This document shows, piece after piece, positions 3,552 to 58,312 of a stretch of 64,000 nt of DNA. Each line of letters begins with the position of its first letter. Within the stretch, counting starts at the first letter, position 1. The stretch is from an uncultured Acidobacteriota bacterium. Lineage in GTDB: Bacteria > Acidobacteriota > Thermoanaerobaculia > Multivoradales > UBA5704. The notes beneath the pieces are model-generated. The model had not been told where the DNA came from. It saw only the letters and a list, made by a program, of their open reading frames with translations, and did no database searches. A program made the translations under genes and the position numbers. Where the stretch lies: positions 160,001 through 224,000 of the forward strand of contig OY969474.1 in assembly GCA_963700145.1 (NCBI GenBank), read 5' to 3'.

Positions 3552-4574
3552 GTGCCGCCGATCACCGTCCCGCTCCACCTCCCCGAGCTGGCGCCCGGCG
3601 CCTGGCTCCAGGGGCCGGCGGTCTCGCTCGCCTTCGCGCGCGGCGCCGTGGTGCTGGTCGATTTCTGGGAGGCGACCTGCGTCAACTGCCTGCGCGCGCT
3701 GCCCTACACCGTCGCCTGGCACCGGCGCTACGGCGGGCGCGGGCTGGTCGTCGTCGGCGTCCACACGCCGGAGTTCGAGCTGACCAAGGACCCGGCGGTG
3801 GTGGCCGCCGTGGCCCGCGAGCTGGGGATCGAGTACCCGATCCTCCTCGACGACGACCGCCAGACCTGGAGCCGCTTCGCCAACCGCTACTGGCCCGCCA
3901 AGTACCTGGCCGACGCGCGCGGCTACCTGCGCTACGAGCACTTCGGCGAGGGAGCGTACGGCGGGACCGAGCGCTGGATCCAGACGCTGCTGCGCGAGGC
4001 CGGCGACACGGGGCCGTACCCCGAGCCGCTGGCGCCGCTCCGGCCGGAGGACGCGCCCGGCGCGGTCTGCCACCCGGCGACCCGCGAGCTCTACCTCGGC
4101 TACCACCGCGGGCGGCTGCTGGCGCCCGAAGGCTACCGCCCGGAGGAGGAGGTGCGGCACGCCGGCCGCCCGGAGCCGGCGCCGGAGGGGATGGCCTCGG
4201 CGCGCGGCCTCTGGCGCCACGAGGCCGAGTACCTGGAGGCGCGCGAGGCCGGGGCCGAGCTGGAGCTGCTGTTCGAGGCCGCCGGGGTGCAGGCGGTGGC
4301 GGGGCCGGCGGGAGAGCTGGAGGTGGAGCTGGACGGCGCGCCCGTGCCCGCCGCCTGGCGCGGCGAGGACGTCGTCGAGCGCGACGGCCGCACGGTGGCG
4401 GTCTGGGAGCGGCCGCGGATGATCCGCCTTCTCGCCGGCGCCCCCTTCGCCCGCCGACTCCTCCGCGTCCGCGCCCTTCGCCCCGGCGTGCGGCTCTACA
4501 CCTTCACCTTCACGAGCTGCCTGCTGCCGGAGGCGGAGAGCGGTCAGCTCCCGGCGGGCGTCAGCCGCCGGTAG
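3552..4574 (+). CDS. Redoxin/DipZ-like thioredoxin-fold protein
   Basis: VLVDFWEATCVNC (CxxC), VVGVHTPEF, NRYWPAKYL, HFGEG, plus a DipZ-type C-terminal domain. Confidence 0.85.
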   Translation: MPPITVPLHLPELAPGAWLQGPAVSLAFARGAVVLVDFWEATCVNCLRALPYTVAWHRRYGGRGLVVVGVHTPEFELTKDPAVVAAVARELGIEYPILLDDDRQTWSRFANRYWPAKYLADARGYLRYEHFGEGAYGGTERWIQTLLREAGDTGPYPEPLAPLRPEDAPGAVCHPATRELYLGYHRGRLLAPEGYRPEEEVRHAGRPEPAPEGMASARGLWRHEAEYLEAREAGAELELLFEAAGVQAVAGPAGELEVELDGAPVPAAWRGEDVVERDGRTVAVWERPRMIRLLAGAPFARRLLRVRALRPGVRLYTFTFTSCLLPEAESGQLPAGVSRR

Positions 4575-52105: not shown

Positions 52106-53854
52106 TCAAGTCTCCCGCAACCCGCGGAAGGCCTCAGGCACCAGCTCGAGGTCGCTCGCTTCCTGGACGGCGAGGGCGATCTGGAACTCCAGGGTCTCGC
52201 GCGGCACCGGGTTGCGCCAGGCGGTGAGCTGGCGCTCGAGGGTCTCGAGGGGGCCGGTCGCCTCGGTCTTGCACGCGCGGTAGGTCTTGAAGGCCAGGGT
52301 CTCCGCCGCCGCCGGCGTCAGCAGCTCCGGGATCTTGGCCTCCAGGCGCGCGAAGGCGTCCTTCTCGATCGCCACCCCGTATCGCTTGCACAAGGCCCGG
52401 ATCAGGTGGAAGCCCTCCTCGGCGCTCGTCGTCGGGAAGAGCGGGATCTTCAAGTCGATCCGCCCGGGACGCTTCAAGTCGATCTCGATCAGGTCCGGCC
52501 GGCTCGAAGCCAGGATCCAGATCACCCGCCCGCGGCTCTCCGAGTTGCTCATCTCCTGGGCGATCATCGAGTAGACGCGGCCCGAGAGCCCGGAGTCCCC
52601 GACGCCCGACTCGCGCTTGCCGAGCGTCTGGTCGGCCTCGTCGATGAAGACGAAGCAGCGGCCGAGCGCGCGCAGCAGGCGGAAGATCTTCTCCAGGTTC
52701 CCCTCGGTCGTCCCCACCCACTTGTCGCGGAAGTTCTTGATCTTGACCACCGGCACCCCCGCCTCGCCGGCCAGGCACTCGGCGAGGTAGGTCTTGCCGG
52801 TCCCCACCGGCCCGCAGAGGAGATACCCGCGCGGCAGCGCCTTCAGCTCGTTGCGCCGCCAGAGCGCCAGGTCCTGCCGCAGCCAGGCCTTGAGCTTCTC
52901 CTGGCCGTAGAGGTCGTCGAAGGTGAGGCGCGAGGAGACGAACTCGATCAGCCCGGCGAGCTCGGTCTCGACCATCTGCTTCTTGAGCTCGACCAGGTCG
53001 GGCGGGCGGAGCGGCTCGCGCCGGTACTCCTTGACCTTGAGCAGGCTCTCGATCGCGGCGAGCGACGCCCCGGCCAGCTCGCGCGCCACGTTCGGCAGGT
53101 CGCCGCGCAGCTCGGCGAGCGCCGTGGGACAGCTCGGCGCGATCAGCTCGAGCGCCGCCTCGATCTCCGCCGGCTCGGGCAGCGGCACCTTGACCGCCGG
53201 CGCGCGGGGGTTGGTGGCGAGGAGCGGGTGGAGGTCGTTGAAGCTCTCGGTGACCAGGAACGACACCAGCGGGTGGCGGGTCAGCAGCTCCTCGCTCGAC
53301 CAGTCGCGCACCAGGAGCGCCAGGGCGTGGACGTCCTGGCCGGCGCCCTCGGCCGGCACCACCAGGTGCGCCGCCTTGACCACCACCGCCACGTGCTGCG
53401 CCGGCTGGCCGATGCGCGCGAGGTTGGCGCAGTAGCGGAAGTAGCGGCCGACGGTCTCCAGCGCCGGCCGCGGCGCGCGCGGGAACTCCTGCCCCTCCTG
53501 GAAGCCCGGCCAGCGGGTGTAGAGCTCGCCGCCCTTCTCGACCCGCAGACCGCTGCCGAGGTCGTAGGAGAAGACGACGTCGAAGCGCGGCACCAGGCGG
53601 CGGAGGAAGAAGTCGATGAGGCCGCCGAGGCGGACGGGCGGGGGCGGGGTTGGCGAGGCCGGATCCGCGGGCTCGGCGCCGGCGGCGCCGGCGGCCGGAG
53701 GCGGCGGCCCCGCCGGCAGGAGCAGCCGGTCGTTGACGTTGCCGTGGACGATGAACTGGCTCGCGGCGTTCGACTCGTAGAGCTCGACGAGCTGCGCCGC
53801 CCAGGCGGGACCGCCCCTCGCCGTGCGCGGAGGCGGGGCTGCCGTGGTGCTCAC
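52106..53854 (-). CDS. Classical-clade AAA ATPase with an N-terminal degenerate AAA-like domain
   Basis: Walker A GPVGTGKT, pore loop KWVG, Walker B VFIDEAD, SRH ASSRPDLIE..LKRPGRID. Confidence 0.9.
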   Translation of the reverse strand: MSTTAAPPPRTARGGPAWAAQLVELYESNAASQFIVHGNVNDRLLLPAGPPPPAAGAAGAEPADPASPTPPPPVRLGGLIDFFLRRLVPRFDVVFSYDLGSGLRVEKGGELYTRWPGFQEGQEFPRAPRPALETVGRYFRYCANLARIGQPAQHVAVVVKAAHLVVPAEGAGQDVHALALLVRDWSSEELLTRHPLVSFLVTESFNDLHPLLATNPRAPAVKVPLPEPAEIEAALELIAPSCPTALAELRGDLPNVARELAGASLAAIESLLKVKEYRREPLRPPDLVELKKQMVETELAGLIEFVSSRLTFDDLYGQEKLKAWLRQDLALWRRNELKALPRGYLLCGPVGTGKTYLAECLAGEAGVPVVKIKNFRDKWVGTTEGNLEKIFRLLRALGRCFVFIDEADQTLGKRESGVGDSGLSGRVYSMIAQEMSNSESRGRVIWILASSRPDLIEIDLKRPGRIDLKIPLFPTTSAEEGFHLIRALCKRYGVAIEKDAFARLEAKIPELLTPAAAETLAFKTYRACKTEATGPLETLERQLTAWRNPVPRETLEFQIALAVQEASDLELVPEAFRGLRET

Positions 53855-54609
53855 GCCTGCTGCGCTTCCGGTCCCATGGTCTTGGCCGGGGCCTCGGTGG
53901 CGGCCGGCTCGGCCTCGCCGGGGAGGGGCTCGAGCGCGATCCCCTCGCGCGCCGCGAACTCGGCCAGCGCTTGCTCGGCGAGCGCGTTCTGCTCGGCGCC
54001 CTTCAAGTCGATCTGCGAAGTGTCCATCGAGTCCTTGGCCACCCGCGCCCGCCCGGCCGCCTTCTCCCGCTCCTCCTCGACCATCGTGTGCAGCCGGTCG
54101 AGCGTGTCGCCCGAGCCGCCGATCGTCGAGATCATGCCGCTCGCCATCTCGGTCAGCTCGGCCATCGCGCGCTTGACCTTCAGGTCGTCGAGGCTGTGCT
54201 TGAGCATCTCGATCTTGGTGCGCGCCGCGTTGACCGCCACGTCGCGGGCCTTGAGCAGGCTCTTGTAGGTCTCCTCGGCGGCGGCGAGCTGCGTGCGGTT
54301 CTCCTGGAGCTGCCGCTCGATCGTCTGCAGGCGCAGGGCGTACTGGCCGGCGACCTCGCGGTTGCCGGCCTTCAGGTTGGCGCTCGCCTTGGCGCGCAGG
54401 TCGCGCTGCTCGATCTCCAGGCGCTTGACCTGGGTCATCAGCCGCTCGCAGAGCCCGGCGTGGGCGGCGAGCCCCTGGTTGTACTCGGCGATCTGCTTCC
54501 GCAGGTTCTCCTTCTCGGCCTCGAGCAGCGCCTCGGGGTTGCGCTTCTCGAGCCCGCTCACGAAGAGCGACAGGAACCCGCGGATCAGGTTGGCGATGCG
54601 TTGGAACAT
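53851..54609 (-). CDS. pspA: PspA/IM30 (bacterial ESCRT-III-like) protein
   Basis: Amphipathic N-helix MFQRIANLIRGFLSLF, NPEALLE, long coiled coils, A..AL, 252 aa. Confidence 0.82.
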   Translation of the reverse strand: MFQRIANLIRGFLSLFVSGLEKRNPEALLEAEKENLRKQIAEYNQGLAAHAGLCERLMTQVKRLEIEQRDLRAKASANLKAGNREVAGQYALRLQTIERQLQENRTQLAAAEETYKSLLKARDVAVNAARTKIEMLKHSLDDLKVKRAMAELTEMASGMISTIGGSGDTLDRLHTMVEEEREKAAGRARVAKDSMDTSQIDLKGAEQNALAEQALAEFAAREGIALEPLPGEAEPAATEAPAKTMGPEAQQA

Positions 54610-54663
54610 GGCGACCTCCCGGATGAGCGCGGGGATCTTACCGTAGCGGGCGGCGGGGCGCGG

Positions 54664-55113
54664 CTATGACGCCTTGGAGCCGAGGCGGCCGGGCGGCCGA
54701 TCGTCCAGCTCGTCGTCCAGGTCCGCCGCCCGCTTGGCGCCGCGCCCCTCCTTCGCATGCATCTCGGAGAGGGCGCTCTGGAGGTTCGTGAACGAGCGCT
54801 GGAGGACGCGGAGGAGCTCGTCGAAGCTGGGATCGCGCGGCTGGGCAGGAAGGGGCGCCGGCGGCGCCGCCGGGGCCGCGCCGTAGACCTCGGCGAAGAA
54901 CTCGGCCGGCCGCACGCCAAGGACGTCGAGGAGCCTGAGCACGTGCTCGAAGCGCAGCTTGACCGAGCCGCGCAGCACCTGCCGCAGGTAGTCGCGGCCC
55001 ATCCCCGACCGCTCTTCCACTTCCTTGTAGGTCAGGCCGGCTTCCCGGATCTTCCGCTTCAGCCCCTCGGCGACCTTGCGGACCTCGTCCTCGGAGCGGT
55101 CCTCGATCGTCAT
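54664..55113 (-). CDS. XRE-family helix-turn-helix regulator
   Basis: LKRKIREAGLTYKEVEERSGMGRDYLRQVLRG..LRFEHV..LLDVLGV.PAEFF. Confidence 0.85.
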   Translation of the reverse strand: MTIEDRSEDEVRKVAEGLKRKIREAGLTYKEVEERSGMGRDYLRQVLRGSVKLRFEHVLRLLDVLGVRPAEFFAEVYGAAPAAPPAPLPAQPRDPSFDELLRVLQRSFTNLQSALSEMHAKEGRGAKRAADLDDELDDRPPGRLGSKAS

Positions 55114-55177
55114 GCCGGACTGGAGTTTAACGCAACCCTGGCGTTGTGATTTTATCCGCACAGGGTTCCTTGATGGG

Positions 55178-55207
55178 TTGACTGCCATCCTCGTATGGCC
55201 GTAAAGT
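55178..55207 (+). promoter_or_regulatory. Putative sigma70 promoter TTGACT-N18-TAAAGT facing the repeat array
   Basis: -35 at 55178-55183 and -10 at 55202-55207 in an AT-richer divergent intergenic region. Confidence 0.55.
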
Positions 55208-55263
55208 CACCGCATGAGGCTGAATTCTCTCCGAATGCGGAGGACTTCCCTCCGCACCTCCTC

Positions 55264-55578
55264 GGGAAGCTTCCCGCCCGGCGCCGGAAGCTTCCGGACC
55301 GCCTCCGGAAGCTTCCCGTCCGGGTCCGGAGGCTTCCGGACCGCCTCCGGAAGCTTCCCGGCGAGGTGCGGAAGCTTCCCGTCGAGGTGCGGAAGCTTCC
55401 GGTTCACCTCCGGAAGCTTCCCGTCCACGTCCGGAAGCTTCCGCTCCAGGTCCGGAAGCTTCCCGACCGCCTCCGGAAGCTTCCCGGCCGGGTCCGGAAG
55501 CTTCCCCTCCACCCCCGGAAGCTTCCGGACCGCCCGCGGAGGCTTCCCGGGCCGGTCCGGAAGCCTCCCGACCCCCTC
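55264..55578. repeat. Tandem array of 15 x 21-bp units: CGGAAGCTTCCS + 9 variable nt
   Basis: Counted directly; exact 21-bp period; palindromic core GGAAGCTTCC with single mismatches in units 4, 14 and 15. Confidence 0.95.
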
Positions 55579-55623
55579 CATCCCGCCGGCCCGCCGGCCG
55601 GCACTTACCATAGGAGACGCCCC

Positions 55624-56001
55624 ATGCCCGAGACGTCGATCGCAGACAAGGTCACCCGTTGGAGGAGCCTGGCCGACGCCATGCAGAGCCGGATCGTGGA
55701 GTACCCCCAACTCGCGGAGGAGCACGCCGAGCTGGCGGCGGAGGTCGCGAAGATGGAAGCGCTGATCGTCACCGAGGACGCCTTCACCGCCCGCCTCCGC
55801 GACACCTTCGCCAAGCGCCGCGAGACCGAGATCCGCTGCCTGGACATGGCCGCCCGCTGCACCACCGGCCTCCAGAGCCACTACGGCAAGCGCAGCCAGG
55901 AGCTCCGCCACTTCGGCATCGGCCCCTTGCTGCCCCGCCGCAAGCGGAAGGAGGAGGAGCAGAAGAAGGCGGAGCAGGAGAAGGCGCAGAAGAGCGCGTA
56001 G
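55624..56001 (+). CDS. Small coiled-coil hypothetical protein (125 aa) with a HYGKRSQELRHFGI motif and a basic tail
   Basis: AGGAG RBS 7 nt before ATG 55624; heptad pattern; in frame with the RKLP reading of the array. Confidence 0.8.
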   Translation: MPETSIADKVTRWRSLADAMQSRIVEYPQLAEEHAELAAEVAKMEALIVTEDAFTARLRDTFAKRRETEIRCLDMAARCTTGLQSHYGKRSQELRHFGIGPLLPRRKRKEEEQKKAEQEKAQKSA

Positions 56002-56076
56002 GACGGCTGTGCCGCCTGCCGGGATGGATCAACTTCAGCCCGCGGGCCGCTTCGTACTGGTTGTCCGGTCTTTTCG

Positions 56077-56119
56077 ACCGCCTTGCCGAGCAGGTGCTCG
56101 AGCAAGGCGGTTCTTCTTT
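56077..56119 (+). terminator. Probable intrinsic terminator
   Basis: ACCGCCTTGC-CGAGC..GCTCG-A-GCAAGGCGGT stem followed by TCTTCTTT. Confidence 0.6.
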
Positions 56120-56122
56120 GAG

Positions 56123-56848
56123 TCAGGCAGGGCCGAGGGCTTCATCCAATTTGTACATCAGGAGGCTAGCAACGAAGAGCAAGTGAAGGCCGCGTAGGGC
56201 ATTGATCTCCACATTCGCATGAGCCTTCGGGTTTCTGATGCCAGTCATCGCCCCAGCGAAGATCTGCATGTAGCCCTTCTGCTCGTCTCTACCTGAATCG
56301 CCGCCGAGGTCAGCTAGTGTAATGACAGGGTTGGTTATTGAAAATGCACGGTTCATCAGGTCGGCTCCGTCGAACTCTTGCTTAGTCCTTGTCTTAACGG
56401 CTGCCTTGACCCGAGCGTTGACTTCCTTTAACGCTGCCTCGACGGCATCGGCGTAATGAGCAGCGGAGAATCGCGGTTCTGCGATTTCAGCGATCCGCGG
56501 ATGCATGAGATCCCACAAGCCCTCTGCCTCAGAGGGGGTCGGAGCAGGTATGGTGATCTCCTCTTGAAGCGTTGCTATGAGATTAGGTGACTGCTGGTAC
56601 TTCGGGCAGTCTACCGGACATTTCGGCCACGAATAACTGCTAGGAGCCGAGCGTGCTGTCCGGTCTAGGGGTACGTTGCGAGCAGGTATCCGCTTTGCCC
56701 AGTCCTCGACACAGTTCGGATAGAAAGCGCGAAGGTGCCCCTTCTCCACGCGGAGGGAACAACAATCTTTGACTTGCCCGCTCGCGAACAAGCGTAGCAG
56801 GTGTCCGACTACCTCGCCCTTCGACCAGATATCGATCTTGGCAGACAT
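56123..56848 (-). CDS. TIGR02391/Ymh-family protein with a Cys-rich N-terminal domain
   Basis: LMHPRI, YADAVEAA.K.V, DGADLM..AFS, EQKG...FAGA..GIRNPKAH; markedly lower GC. Confidence 0.85.
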   Translation of the reverse strand: MSAKIDIWSKGEVVGHLLRLFASGQVKDCCSLRVEKGHLRAFYPNCVEDWAKRIPARNVPLDRTARSAPSSYSWPKCPVDCPKYQQSPNLIATLQEEITIPAPTPSEAEGLWDLMHPRIAEIAEPRFSAAHYADAVEAALKEVNARVKAAVKTRTKQEFDGADLMNRAFSITNPVITLADLGGDSGRDEQKGYMQIFAGAMTGIRNPKAHANVEINALRGLHLLFVASLLMYKLDEALGPA

Positions 56849-56952
56849 AATGCGTCGCTCTAGCAGCCCTGATGGTTAACGTCACGTACCCTGAAACCGA
56901 CCAAGTCGATGCCACGTCGCCTTGATCGGCACGAGTGCTGCGCCGCCTGCCT

Positions 56953-57510
56953 CTACGCGAAGATCTCGGCGAGCGGGATCGAGAGCCCCGGCAGGAGAGG
57001 CGTGGCGAGGACGTCCACACCCTCGACCGAGAGCTCCGCTACGAGGACGAGACCTTCGCCGGTACGGCGGTACACCCTGACGGTCTCGAATACCGGGTCG
57101 GCGAGCCAATACTCCCTCACGCCGAAGCGGTCGTAGAGCTCGAGCTTCCGCTTCTCGTCCATCTTTCGCGTGGAGTCGGAGAGGACCTCGATCACCAGGT
57201 CGGGGGCGCCCTGAACGTTACGCGCAGTGAGGAGCTCCGACCGGTCCTGCGAGACGAAGAGGAGGTCCGGCTCGACGAAGTTTGACGGCGTGAAGACGAC
57301 ATCGCACGGCGCGAGGTAGACCTTGCCGATCGAACGGGTGCGCAGGAAGTGGCGCAGGAGGTAGTGGAAGTTGCCGACAATCCACTGGTGTTTGAGGCTC
57401 GGCGCCGGCGACACGTAGTGTTCCCCGTCGATCAGCTCGTGGCGGAGGCCGTCGTCGGGGAGGGCCAGGAGATCCTCGTAGGTGAGCTGGCGATGGGCGG
57501 TGCGTGCCAT
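56953..57510 (-). CDS. Uma2 family endonuclease (copy 1)
   Basis: LPDDGLRHELIDG, EPDLLFV, GAPDLVIEVLS, KLELY..FGVREYWLADP. Confidence 0.93.
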   Translation of the reverse strand: MARTAHRQLTYEDLLALPDDGLRHELIDGEHYVSPAPSLKHQWIVGNFHYLLRHFLRTRSIGKVYLAPCDVVFTPSNFVEPDLLFVSQDRSELLTARNVQGAPDLVIEVLSDSTRKMDEKRKLELYDRFGVREYWLADPVFETVRVYRRTGEGLVLVAELSVEGVDVLATPLLPGLSIPLAEIFA

Positions 57511-57537
57511 GAATCCGTCCTCAGTGACCCGCTGAAT

Positions 57538-57729
57538 CTAGCACCCGCCGCCGCGCCTGCGGCCCCGGCCCCGTGCGGCCTCACCAGTAAGACGGAAAAC
57601 AGCCGGCGAGTCGTGCATGCGGCGGGCGTACTTGTTTGGCCGAGCCCGGCTGAAGTCGTACTCCGGGAGGATCTCGTCGTACTCGACTTGGTCCTCAGCG
57701 CTTTCCTTCTTTGGCGGTTCCTGACTCAT
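57538..57729 (-). pseudogene. Truncated BrnA-like antitoxin remnant
   Basis: DEILPEYDFSRARPNKYARR resembles the N-terminus of BrnA-like antitoxins; the sequence then switches into the duplicated Uma2 upstream region. Confidence 0.5.
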
Positions 57730-57754
57730 GCCTACGCGAAGATTCTGGCCGGAC

Positions 57755-58312
57755 CTACCAGAAAATCTCGGCGACAGGAATCTCGAGGTCCGGCAGCAGC
57801 GGCGTGGTGAGGACGTCGCCGGATTCGGCGGAAAGCTCCGCGACGGGGCGCAGGGCGCCGTCAATGCGGCGGAAGACCTCGATCGTTTCGAACGAGGGCT
57901 CGACCAGCCAGTACTCGCGTACACCCATGCGGTCGTAGAGCTGATGCTTGACGCCTTGGTCGCGCTTGCGGGTTGAGGGCGAGAGGATTTCCACGACCAG
58001 GTCGGGCGCGCCTTGGACGTTCGCCTCGGTCAAGACGTTCAGGCGCTCGCGCGAGACGAAGAGGAGGTCGGGCTCGACGACGTCCGAGGGCGAAAACACG
58101 ACATCGTACGGCGCAATGAACAAACGTCCCAGGTCGTGGCGCTTGGCAAACGAGGCAATGGCGGCCGTGAGGTTCACCACCACTGCCTGGTGCTTTGTGT
58201 TCGGCGCCGGCGTCACGTAGTGCTCCCCGTCGATCAGCTCGTGGCGGAGGCCGTCGTCGGGGAGGGCCAGGAGGTCCTCGTAGGTGAGCCTGCGATGAGC
58301 CGTGCGTGCCAT
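57755..58312 (-). CDS. Uma2 family endonuclease (copy 2)
   Basis: Same motifs as copy 1; near-identical first 30 codons. Confidence 0.93.
   Translation of the reverse strand: MARTAHRRLTYEDLLALPDDGLRHELIDGEHYVTPAPNTKHQAVVVNLTAAIASFAKRHDLGRLFIAPYDVVFSPSDVVEPDLLFVSRERLNVLTEANVQGAPDLVVEILSPSTRKRDQGVKHQLYDRMGVREYWLVEPSFETIEVFRRIDGALRPVAELSAESGDVLTTPLLPDLEIPVAEIFW

Follow-up and report, generated by a model that had tools for sequence, protein, structure and literature searches.

Phased 21-bp Repeat Arrays Paired with a Family of Small Helical Proteins in Thermoanaerobaculia

ParR-parC and plasmid iterons are familiar bacterial repeat arrays; ParR binds through a ribbon-helix-helix fold, and iterons, like the parC units of pSK41, are spaced 20-22 bp apart. 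In toxin-antitoxin (TA) systems of type III the repeats measure about 34-45 nt and come in few copies, and mycobacterial interspersed repetitive units (MIRUs) are dispersed intergenic or intercistronic tandem repeats with units of 46-100 bp, the number of which varies between strains. Plasmids also supply single-protein repeat binders. StbA of R388, with its stbDR/stbS sites, is reported to be a small autoregulatory repeat-binding protein (10.1101/2022.04.29.490116), and KfrA of RA3 is described as an alpha-helical, oligomerizing protein with five 9-bp repeats at its own promoter (PMC7783346). Repetitive extragenic palindromic (REP) sequences and REPINs, together with RAYT genes, are presented as dispersed intergenic palindrome families each tied to one gene (PMC3116915, PMC8266576, PMC3686654). 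The type III TA systems ToxIN, CptIN, and TenpIN are laid out as promoter, tandem direct repeats, and protein gene, the repeat being private to the protein (PMC8860590, PMC12283969). Here we describe an element that can be compared with each of these, an array of 15 units of 21 bp followed by a gene for a 125-aa protein (p125), found in a 64,000-nucleotide stretch of an uncultured Acidobacteriota genome (positions 160,001 to 224,000 of contig OY969474.1, hereafter the window; genome G000).

The best reading of the locus is that the array (55264-55578) and the p125 gene (55624-56001, plus strand; ATG at 55624, stop at 56001) form one two-part module whose array is private to the gene and non-coding. 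From left to right the module comprises a sigma-70-like promoter (TTGACT-18-TAAAGT, 55178-55207, plus strand), a 5' hairpin, the array, a ribosome-binding site (RBS; GGAG at 55613-55616), the p125 gene, and a terminator. The initial annotation had proposed that promoter, array, small helical gene, and terminator make up one compact unit, and each of these elements proved to be where it had been placed. Co-occurrence of arrays with homologs of 55624-56001, a check fixed beforehand, was confirmed in G000, four further genomes of its genus, two more genera from the same family, and a single distant phylum member (G000-G004, G012, G023, and G288). An upstream array precedes 37 of the 51 p125-family genes at a periodic identity of at least 0.58, with a period of 21 in 33 cases, 20 in three, and 22 in one. 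With the threshold at 0.6, 33 of 49 genes qualify, compared with 2.1% of 1500 randomly chosen G000 genes, and the control-gene matches are mostly period-21 or period-20 arrays themselves. Nor did the homologous loci turn out to lack arrays, as would fit a neutral minisatellite: G002, G003, and G004 all carry one. The copy in the distant, AT-rich G288 follows at least eight units of 21 bp (ACGATTAAAACGTTTAAATGG, with a AAACGTTT dyad), then an RBS, and contains the family motif YGKRS..L.DFG; with the cross-genus survey, this indicates that the array-gene architecture outlasts complete sequence turnover. Downstream of the 124 intergenic arrays of G000, p125 is the sole recurring gene family (14 arrays), and two other clusters have two members each.

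The p125 paralogs of G000 number 11 by tblastn, 14 by profile search, and 16 when two divergent array-adjacent copies are added; the window copy is p1. Tandem Repeats Finder (TRF), applied to 800 nt of upstream DNA from each of the first 12 paralogs, detected a period-20 or period-21 array before essentially every one, ending 20-120 nt 5' of the start codon and with a core that differs in each of the 12. Most of these cores are dyad symmetric, and examples are GGAGATCGATCTCC, GGAGGA-TGTT-TCCTCC, GAGATCTATCTC, GGTATC-N7-GATACC, GGATGTATCC, CCGTTAC-G-GTAACGG, and GGAAAGCTTTCC. The constant feature is the 20-22-bp period and not the core sequence. This modifies the initial annotation, in which GGAAGCTTCC was the constant part of the unit: the array is real and core-based, but the core differs from paralog to paralog.

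In the window, TRF reports an array at 55261-55573 with a period of 21, 14.9 copies, 76% matches, and a score of 267, together with a higher-order period of 63 bp (score 372). Fifteen cores with at most one mismatch to GGAAGCTTCC define 14 spacings, every one of 21 bp (genome 215265-215568, window 55265-55568), and the unit consists of the constant dyad C-GGAAG|CTTCC-S and a 9-11-bp spacer, with dyad complementarity of 0.86-1.00 at the five innermost pairs. The 5.46-Mb genome (71.5% G+C) contains 87 exact copies of the core, against 4.7 expected from composition, and 77 of the 87 fall within 13 arrays; a two-core pattern gives 109 matches and its reversed control none. Two related soil strains have exactly one additional whole 21-bp unit in this array. 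It is not a CRISPR locus, which would have repeats of at least 23 nt and unique spacers of similar length; here the whole unit is 21 bp, the 9-11-bp spacers are mutually alike, and the neighboring genes scanned gave no match to cas genes.

Orthologs and close paralogs were compared for the fate of core and flanks. Orthologs of p1 keep GGAAGCTTCC in G000, G004, G003, and G002, down to 69% protein identity, while the corresponding arrays of G004, G003, and G002 have 15-17 units with largely diverged spacers; p2, p3, and p4 keep their cores too, in two genomes each. The close paralogs p5, p6, p7, and G003:C381, separated by short branches, have four unrelated cores. On either side of the array, close-paralog modules have DNA identities of 79-93%, and in four of six module pairs the alignment stops at the array, at about -300 to -25 from the ATG; for p2/p4, whose cores are related, and for p2/p7 it extended into the array or across it. 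Because the flanks align and the alignment breaks at the array, the array behaves as a cassette that is swapped within conserved surroundings. The p125 gene is the least similar collinear segment in four of five informative pairs, leaving aside the XRE segment of p5/p6. The one neighbor that stays constant is p125, and both its near one-to-one pairing with array families and the exchange of arrays that follows duplication resemble cognate specificity.

The AlphaFold2 (AF2) model of p125 is all-helical (predicted local distance difference test [pLDDT] 85.5), with a short helix at residues 6-21, a long 60-residue helix at 28-87, a short helix at 92-97, no strand, and a low-confidence tail that is basic or proline-rich. 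The p125 homodimer model scores 0.64 against 0.00 for the best control, a mark reached by 20 of 30 proteins solved as one-chain pairs and by one of 23 solved as single chains. Homodimer runs agree in at least 98% of contacts with a partner pLDDT of at least 88, and the modeled dimer is antiparallel via the long helices, with residues 57-58 on the two-fold axis. So modeled, p125 is a symmetric dimer that would suit a dyad-symmetric ligand; the score expresses the confidence of a model and is no measured quantity. In a 16-sequence alignment the stretch ARLRE..R.R contains two invariant residues, R59 and R65, and the nearly invariant R57; across 121 diverse family members only M1, P28, G88, L94, G98, and P101 are nearly invariant.

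Few clues came from database comparison. Pfam, NCBIfam, and PHROG gave nothing at E up to 0.1 save a sub-threshold DUF465, a profile search of PDB sequences returned only coiled-coil noise (best GCN4, E 0.03), a Foldseek search of PDB gave no match at E up to 0.001, and a wide VIA-align structure search gave generic helical matches (best Z 7.3) that are uninformative for helical models. There is no HTH (helix-turn-helix) family match, just one short helix lying before the long one, and no ribbon-helix-helix family match or strand in the AF2 model. The protein likewise matches no transposase or recombinase family and no ToxN/AbiQ-like or other nuclease, and no enzyme-like signature or conserved catalytic residue occurs across the 121 sequences. 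A HEPN-like Rx4-6H motif spotted by eye in some paralogs was dropped, its R and H not being conserved family-wide. ESM Atlas matches are to Acidobacteriota clusters only. The family comprises 1045 clusters at 50% identity in a large metagenomic library and was detected in three of 301 genomes sampled across the phylum; the mention, in the initial annotation, of similar proteins in Thermoanaerobaculia fits the one named homolog.

Arrays are linked to p125 genes as first proposed but are not confined to them, about 110 orphans lying elsewhere. Period 21 dominates the tandem repeats of G000, with 114 TRF rows of at least four copies, compared with 33 for its multiple 42 and no more than 21 for each remaining period of 10 or longer. 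Merging gave 141 loci: 14 within strong open reading frames (ORFs), 14 linked to p125 by gene calls, and 113 orphans. Of the orphans, 53 lie between co-directional, 32 between convergent, and 28 between divergent genes, and their orientation relative to co-directional neighbors is unbiased (nine same, 13 opposite). By a rough clustering of unit consensuses (single linkage at 76% identity), most array families consist of one p125-linked member and 2-14 orphans. The window family by this clustering contains p1 and the arrays at 1581836, 1967610, 2324409, and 5033286, to which 1468972 and 5034824 were added by alignment or core pattern; homology among its members is confined to the array, the flanks not being common. 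The CGCCGCCGTCCGAAAGGCGA family has no p125 in G000, yet precedes a p125 gene in G004. G000 and G004 both have array 1967610, whereas the corresponding site is empty in G001, G002, and G003. Array 2324409 occurs in G003 and G001 and, in a much shortened form, in G004, while G002 yielded no copy. In the GGATGTATCC family, four orphans match the whole p6 intergenic element unit for unit at 80-87% identity, with left ends alike (about -375 to -381) and right ends varying between -72 and +51, and one of the four is a decayed module that retains the first ~50 nt of a p125 gene. These whole-element alignments indicate that some orphans are copies of a master element and not independent expansions. 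No target-site duplications or terminal inverted repeats were seen by eye in two orphan-boundary alignments, which were not a systematic search. A GAAGCTTC three-core pattern was found in four of four genus genomes (8-88 matches), 10 times in one other genus, and once in each of four further family genomes, with none in 16 genomes of the order's other families.

Some further observations concern these dispersed repeats. An IS3-type OrfA (HTH_Tnp_1, E 2.3e-10) directly follows two arrays of different families (G000:C1:5033548-5033868 and 2946190-2946510), the two 195-nt flanks being 100% identical, and the arrays may be insertion targets for an IS3-type element. The small ORFs after arrays 2945985 and 5033286 had been considered as p125-like but were rejected (hhalign probability 0.3); they are the IS3-type OrfA. 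Period-42 repeats with GTAG (AACCGCGTAGGTAGAGGACCGCG...) at G000:C1:32886, 409618, 1365071, and 1929398 look REP-like and distinct in class from the 21-bp arrays. Several draft contigs of sister genomes begin or end within 21-bp arrays, for example G001:C10, G001:C277, and G004:C9, and array counts in draft genomes are lower bounds because the repeats break short-read assemblies.

We tentatively prefer, at slightly less than an even chance, the reading that each array is a cognate platform for its own p125 dimer, more likely as phased sites in double-stranded DNA than as RNA. We infer that p125 binds the array, that it does so in DNA and not RNA, and that the outcome is autoregulation or the marking of loci. 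In the proposed mechanism, p125 would form a two-fold-symmetric antiparallel dimer, one dimer would occupy each usually dyad-symmetric unit, and the 21-bp spacing, about two helical turns, would put every dimer on one face of the DNA, so that 7-25 dimers could assemble cooperatively into a nucleoprotein stretch. At its own locus this stretch, lying between promoter and RBS, would serve as an autoregulatory roadblock or titration site, and the same p125 would in addition occupy its family's orphan arrays at other chromosomal sites. After duplication a copy would gain a different array family, and for that reason some 16 pairs could operate per genome without cross-talk, as with plasmid incompatibility or immunity determinants. 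Our lean toward the DNA over the RNA level is modest and arises mainly because the dyad mismatches show no bias of G-U over A-C: on the sense strand of 34 arrays, 75 are of G-U type and 71 of A-C type (p 0.80). The period clusters at 21 irrespective of sequence, and the conserved dyads are made of 4-6-bp half-sites set 0-2 bp apart, which recalls operators. The phasing, the unbiased strand of the orphans, and the modeled symmetric dimer are compatible with a DNA platform without discriminating for it.

Several observations weigh against this interpretation. The mismatch test has modest power, and a first pass on 11 arrays gave 30 versus 17. By the measure used, 14 of the 51 p125-family genes are without an array, and the dyads of some arrays (p15, p16, and G012:C8) are weak. 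The protein has no recognizable DNA-binding fold, its AF2 model showing neither an HTH nor the strand of a ribbon-helix-helix, and in the 121-member alignment near-invariance is limited to M1 and the structural positions P28, G88, L94, G98, and P101. A promoter 5' of the array is no less suited to an RNA leader than to an operator. Furthermore, p1 and p9 have a common GAAGCTTC core at only 27% protein identity and, conversely, p5, p6, p7, and G003:C381 have near-identical conserved helices, including the Arg-rich stretch, despite their four unrelated cores. Reading of sequence by p125 would thus need to depend on few variable residues, for example in an N-terminal arm, variation being greatest at the N-terminal residues 2-13 and at positions 17-52; otherwise p125 reads shape and phase, the families reflecting descent from master copies, or another reader is involved.

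The main competitor at the RNA level, which we consider unlikely, is a module in which the array is a 5' leader or intercistronic spacer, with core hairpins that are bound or processed by p125, as in type III TA or an RNA sponge, or that control mRNA stability or translation in cis. The order of promoter, repeats, and gene resembles ToxIN, similar promoter sites lie 5' of the p8, p15, and p16 arrays (with p1, four of 16 loci), and no promoter-like site lies between array and ATG at any of the 16 loci. The array is intercistronic at the operon-type copies described below, a conserved hairpin lies between array and RBS, and the leader of the window gene is predicted to fold very strongly (-270 kcal/mol, z -13.4, with 10-12-bp stems) because neighboring self-complementary cores pair. 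A family-fixed unit length is also described for type III antitoxin RNAs, and a cognate RNA-protein pair would need orthogonal arrays after duplication. Against an RNA role stand the even balance of G-U and A-C mismatches, the unoriented orphans, 28 of which lie between divergent genes, the absence from p125 of a nuclease family match or conserved catalytic residues, and the missing U-tract at the hairpin before the RBS. An Rfam scan of 54000-57000 found no family at gathering score, the best being chance miRNA models at 25 bits against thresholds of 62-100. We regard as rather unlikely, too, that the arrays are selfish or neutral, that is, dispersed minisatellites or elements akin to miniature inverted-repeat transposable elements (MITEs), which spread by themselves or via host recombination, favor or are tolerated at the site upstream of p125, and are unbound by p125 or, in a variant resembling REPIN-RAYT, are mobilized by it. 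The many orphans, the four copies of the whole p6 element with their common left end, the filled and empty sites of array 1967610 among sister genomes and the shortened 2324409 in G004, and the strain differences in unit number would all be expected of such repeats, and one gene with its own repeat family recalls REP/RAYT. However, neutral insertion does not predict that the link with p125 persists across genera and in a distant family despite total sequence turnover. Orthologous arrays keep their cores while their spacers diverge, and the maintenance of period and dyad together with these cores points to selection on the units. The lack of any transposase or recombinase match, the want of target-site duplications or terminal inverted repeats in the two alignments viewed by eye, and the fact that window-family orphans have the array and not the flanks in common also speak against mobility of this kind.

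Palindromic sites of 10-14 bp are typical of HTH operators, and the array could in principle be the operator field of the divergent XRE-family HTH regulator (54664-55188, minus strand; Pfam HTH_3 E 2.8e-9, HTH_31 E 1.1e-8) and not of p125, a possibility that we judge very improbable. The XRE gene, which may start at ATG 55113, abuts the array here and at p8, but these are just two of the 16 G000 loci, so that the initial annotation's inclusion of it in the module did not survive. Its paralogs lie within about 4 kb of seven of 12 p125 paralogs, about 1.4 kb from the array at operon-type copies, and are missing at others, whereas the array stays before p125; the p2 and p5 modules are 85% identical across the XRE region and have unrelated arrays. 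The XRE gene is a local neighbor and not a constant partner. The window array is also non-coding, and a heptad-repeat peptide (RKLPxxx, as the N-terminal part of a 268-aa protein at 55195-56001, or (G/R)KLPExV on the minus strand) was rejected as having next to no chance of being real. In its favor, G000, G004, and G002 have the RKLP frame (CGG-AAG-CTT-CCN) open and running in phase into p125, and the P codon varies at its third base. Openness is uninformative, since none of the four orthologous arrays has a stop in any plus frame. The G003 array is 1 nt out of phase with p125, one strain has a 1-nt linker deletion, a sister array (genome 1501892-1502185) has stops in all six frames, and four of the 37 family arrays have a period of 20 or 22. 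In addition, all 12 paralogs examined have their own RBS and a start aligned to p125 M1, six close homologs measure 123-125 aa, ATG 55195 sits within the promoter, and the minus-strand ORF runs antisense over p125. Of the three models originally offered for the array, the phased DNA platform survives and is favored, the structured leader or RNA precursor survives as well, and the repeat peptide falls.

The remaining features of the window locus are as follows. The TTGACT-18-TAAAGT promoter is the sole promoter-like match within 54900-56300, where shuffles predict 0.1, and is kept at the orthologous loci of G004 and G003; if it is used, the array would be transcribed inside a leader of ~400 nt. 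The motif CATGAGG occurs 3' of the -10 element in the leaders of p1 (window 55214-55222) and p9 (G000:C1, about 1445700), whose proteins are 27% identical, and may be a conserved transcript start or leader motif. The 5' stem-loop (GCGGAGG/CCTCCGC, 55236-55256, plus strand; -14.9 kcal/mol, z -4.45) lies near the predicted transcript start, and a comparable stem was found in G004 and G003. Between array and gene, the linker (55579-55623, plus strand) contains, in a fold of 55576-55626, a GC-rich hairpin at about 55585-55602, followed by the RBS. This hairpin has no U-tract, and no terminator was found between the array and the p125 gene. The linker is kept across four orthologous loci, with one extra nucleotide in the G003 copy, and it has lost 1 nt, at 55608, in a metagenome contig from a related strain. 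The intrinsic terminator (56076-56120, plus strand) consists of a hairpin at ~56076-56112 with 16 pairs and one bulged base (-29.9 kcal/mol, z -5.82), then TTCTTCTTT; a simple terminator scan missed it because of its long loop.

To the left of the XRE gene lies a two-gene operon with overlapping stop and start (52106-54609, minus strand), encoding a 582-aa AAA ATPase (PF00004 E 9.8e-25; Cdc48/FtsH-like by NCBIfam) and a 252-aa PspA/IM30 protein (E 7.1e-11). Right of the p125 terminator are a Hypoth_Ymh/TIGR02391 gene (56123-56848) and two tandem Uma2 genes (56953-57510 and 57755-58312), all on the minus strand. The contigs of related soil strains cease matching at 56001-56007, just past the p125 stop, and for this reason window positions 56002-58312 look strain-specific. 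No ParM/ParA-type NTPase is adjacent among these neighbors (XRE, PspA, Cdc48/FtsH-type AAA ATPase, Hypoth_Ymh, and Uma2). The operon-type copies (L050, G000:C1:3383000-3396000; sister modules) are ordered as a 260-aa gene, a 133-aa ORF (4061-4462) that overlaps its 3' end in another frame, the array, and p125, followed by genes of 137, 82, 256, and 204 aa. None of these neighbors (260, 133, 137, 82, 256, and 204 aa) has a Pfam or PHROG match, and the system therefore gets no name from its context. Upstream of these copies are a divergent XRE gene and a gene for a TPR protein of 430-440 aa, and in L050 a DDE transposase and an HD-CE/HATPase protein lie nearby.

If p125 binds the arrays, it would represent a new nucleic-acid-binding family of 1045 clusters at 50% identity that is without annotation. 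The pairs would then be a natural set of orthogonal protein-site combinations, and the close paralogs with unrelated sites a compact system for the rewiring of specificity. A wider picture is possible, though we hold it on the doubtful side: Thermoanaerobaculia of this family would carry ~16 orthogonal pairs per genome, each a small antiparallel coiled-coil protein, of a new nucleic-acid-recognition fold class, with a private 21-bp-phased array family, the families together occupying more than 100 intergenic regions. These could act as a chromosomal addressing or pairing system, or equally as a REPIN/RAYT-like symbiosis with a non-enzymatic protein, and the cassette swap after duplication would guard against cross-talk. 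Should the arrays be selfish, they would constitute a new kind of bacterial minisatellite or MITE with a linked non-enzymatic gene, which bears on the persistence of REP-like repeats. Because period-21 arrays outnumber all other tandem repeats of this genome and are found in over a hundred of its intergenic regions, they likely matter for gene regulation, chromosome organization, or genome plasticity in a widespread and little-studied soil lineage.

A full-text literature search, outside subscription journals, found no description of such arrays or of the p125 family, in agreement with the initial view of the module as apparently new, and the array-p125 pairing appears new in kind. Its resemblance to StbA and KfrA lies in tandem short repeats directly before the gene of a small, oligomerizing, partly coiled-coil protein, in the lack of an NTPase partner, and in a repeat specificity private to each element; StbA and KfrA bind their repeats and repress their own transcription. 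StbA and KfrA bind via an N-terminal HTH; p125 gave no HTH family match, and its AF2 model has one short helix before the long one. Unlike ParR, ParG, and omega systems it has neither a ribbon-helix-helix nor an adjacent ParA/ParM-type partner. The p125 arrays further differ from those of plasmid repeat binders in having 7-25 units, in lying wholly 3' of the promoter, and in being chromosomal, with about 16 orthogonal versions and about 110 orphan copies per genome.

In genome pattern the arrays recall REP/RAYT, where each repeat family flanks its cognate gene and several orthogonal pairs occur per genome; here too a dispersed palindromic family has one p125-linked member and 2-14 orphans. Yet RAYT is an HUH/Y1 transposase and p125 a 125-aa helical protein with no transposase match, REPs are single or paired 20-40-nt hairpins with a GTAG/CGTC head in place of strictly phased 21-bp tandem arrays, and the p125 array stands on one side of its gene only. 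As in ToxIN, the repeats lie between promoter (55178-55207) and gene, an order seen also at p8, p15, and p16. In contrast to the endoribonuclease toxins of type III TA, however, p125 is all-helical without a nuclease match or catalytic residues, and no terminator was found between array and gene, no wobble signal appears, and orphan arrays come in addition. From MIRUs the p125 arrays are set apart by their linked protein family and their signature of dyad plus helical phase. The closest analogues are thus plasmid single-protein repeat binders in function, REP/RAYT in genome pattern, and type III TA in layout, and, by family matches and the AF2 model, each of them parts from the p125 module at its defining protein.

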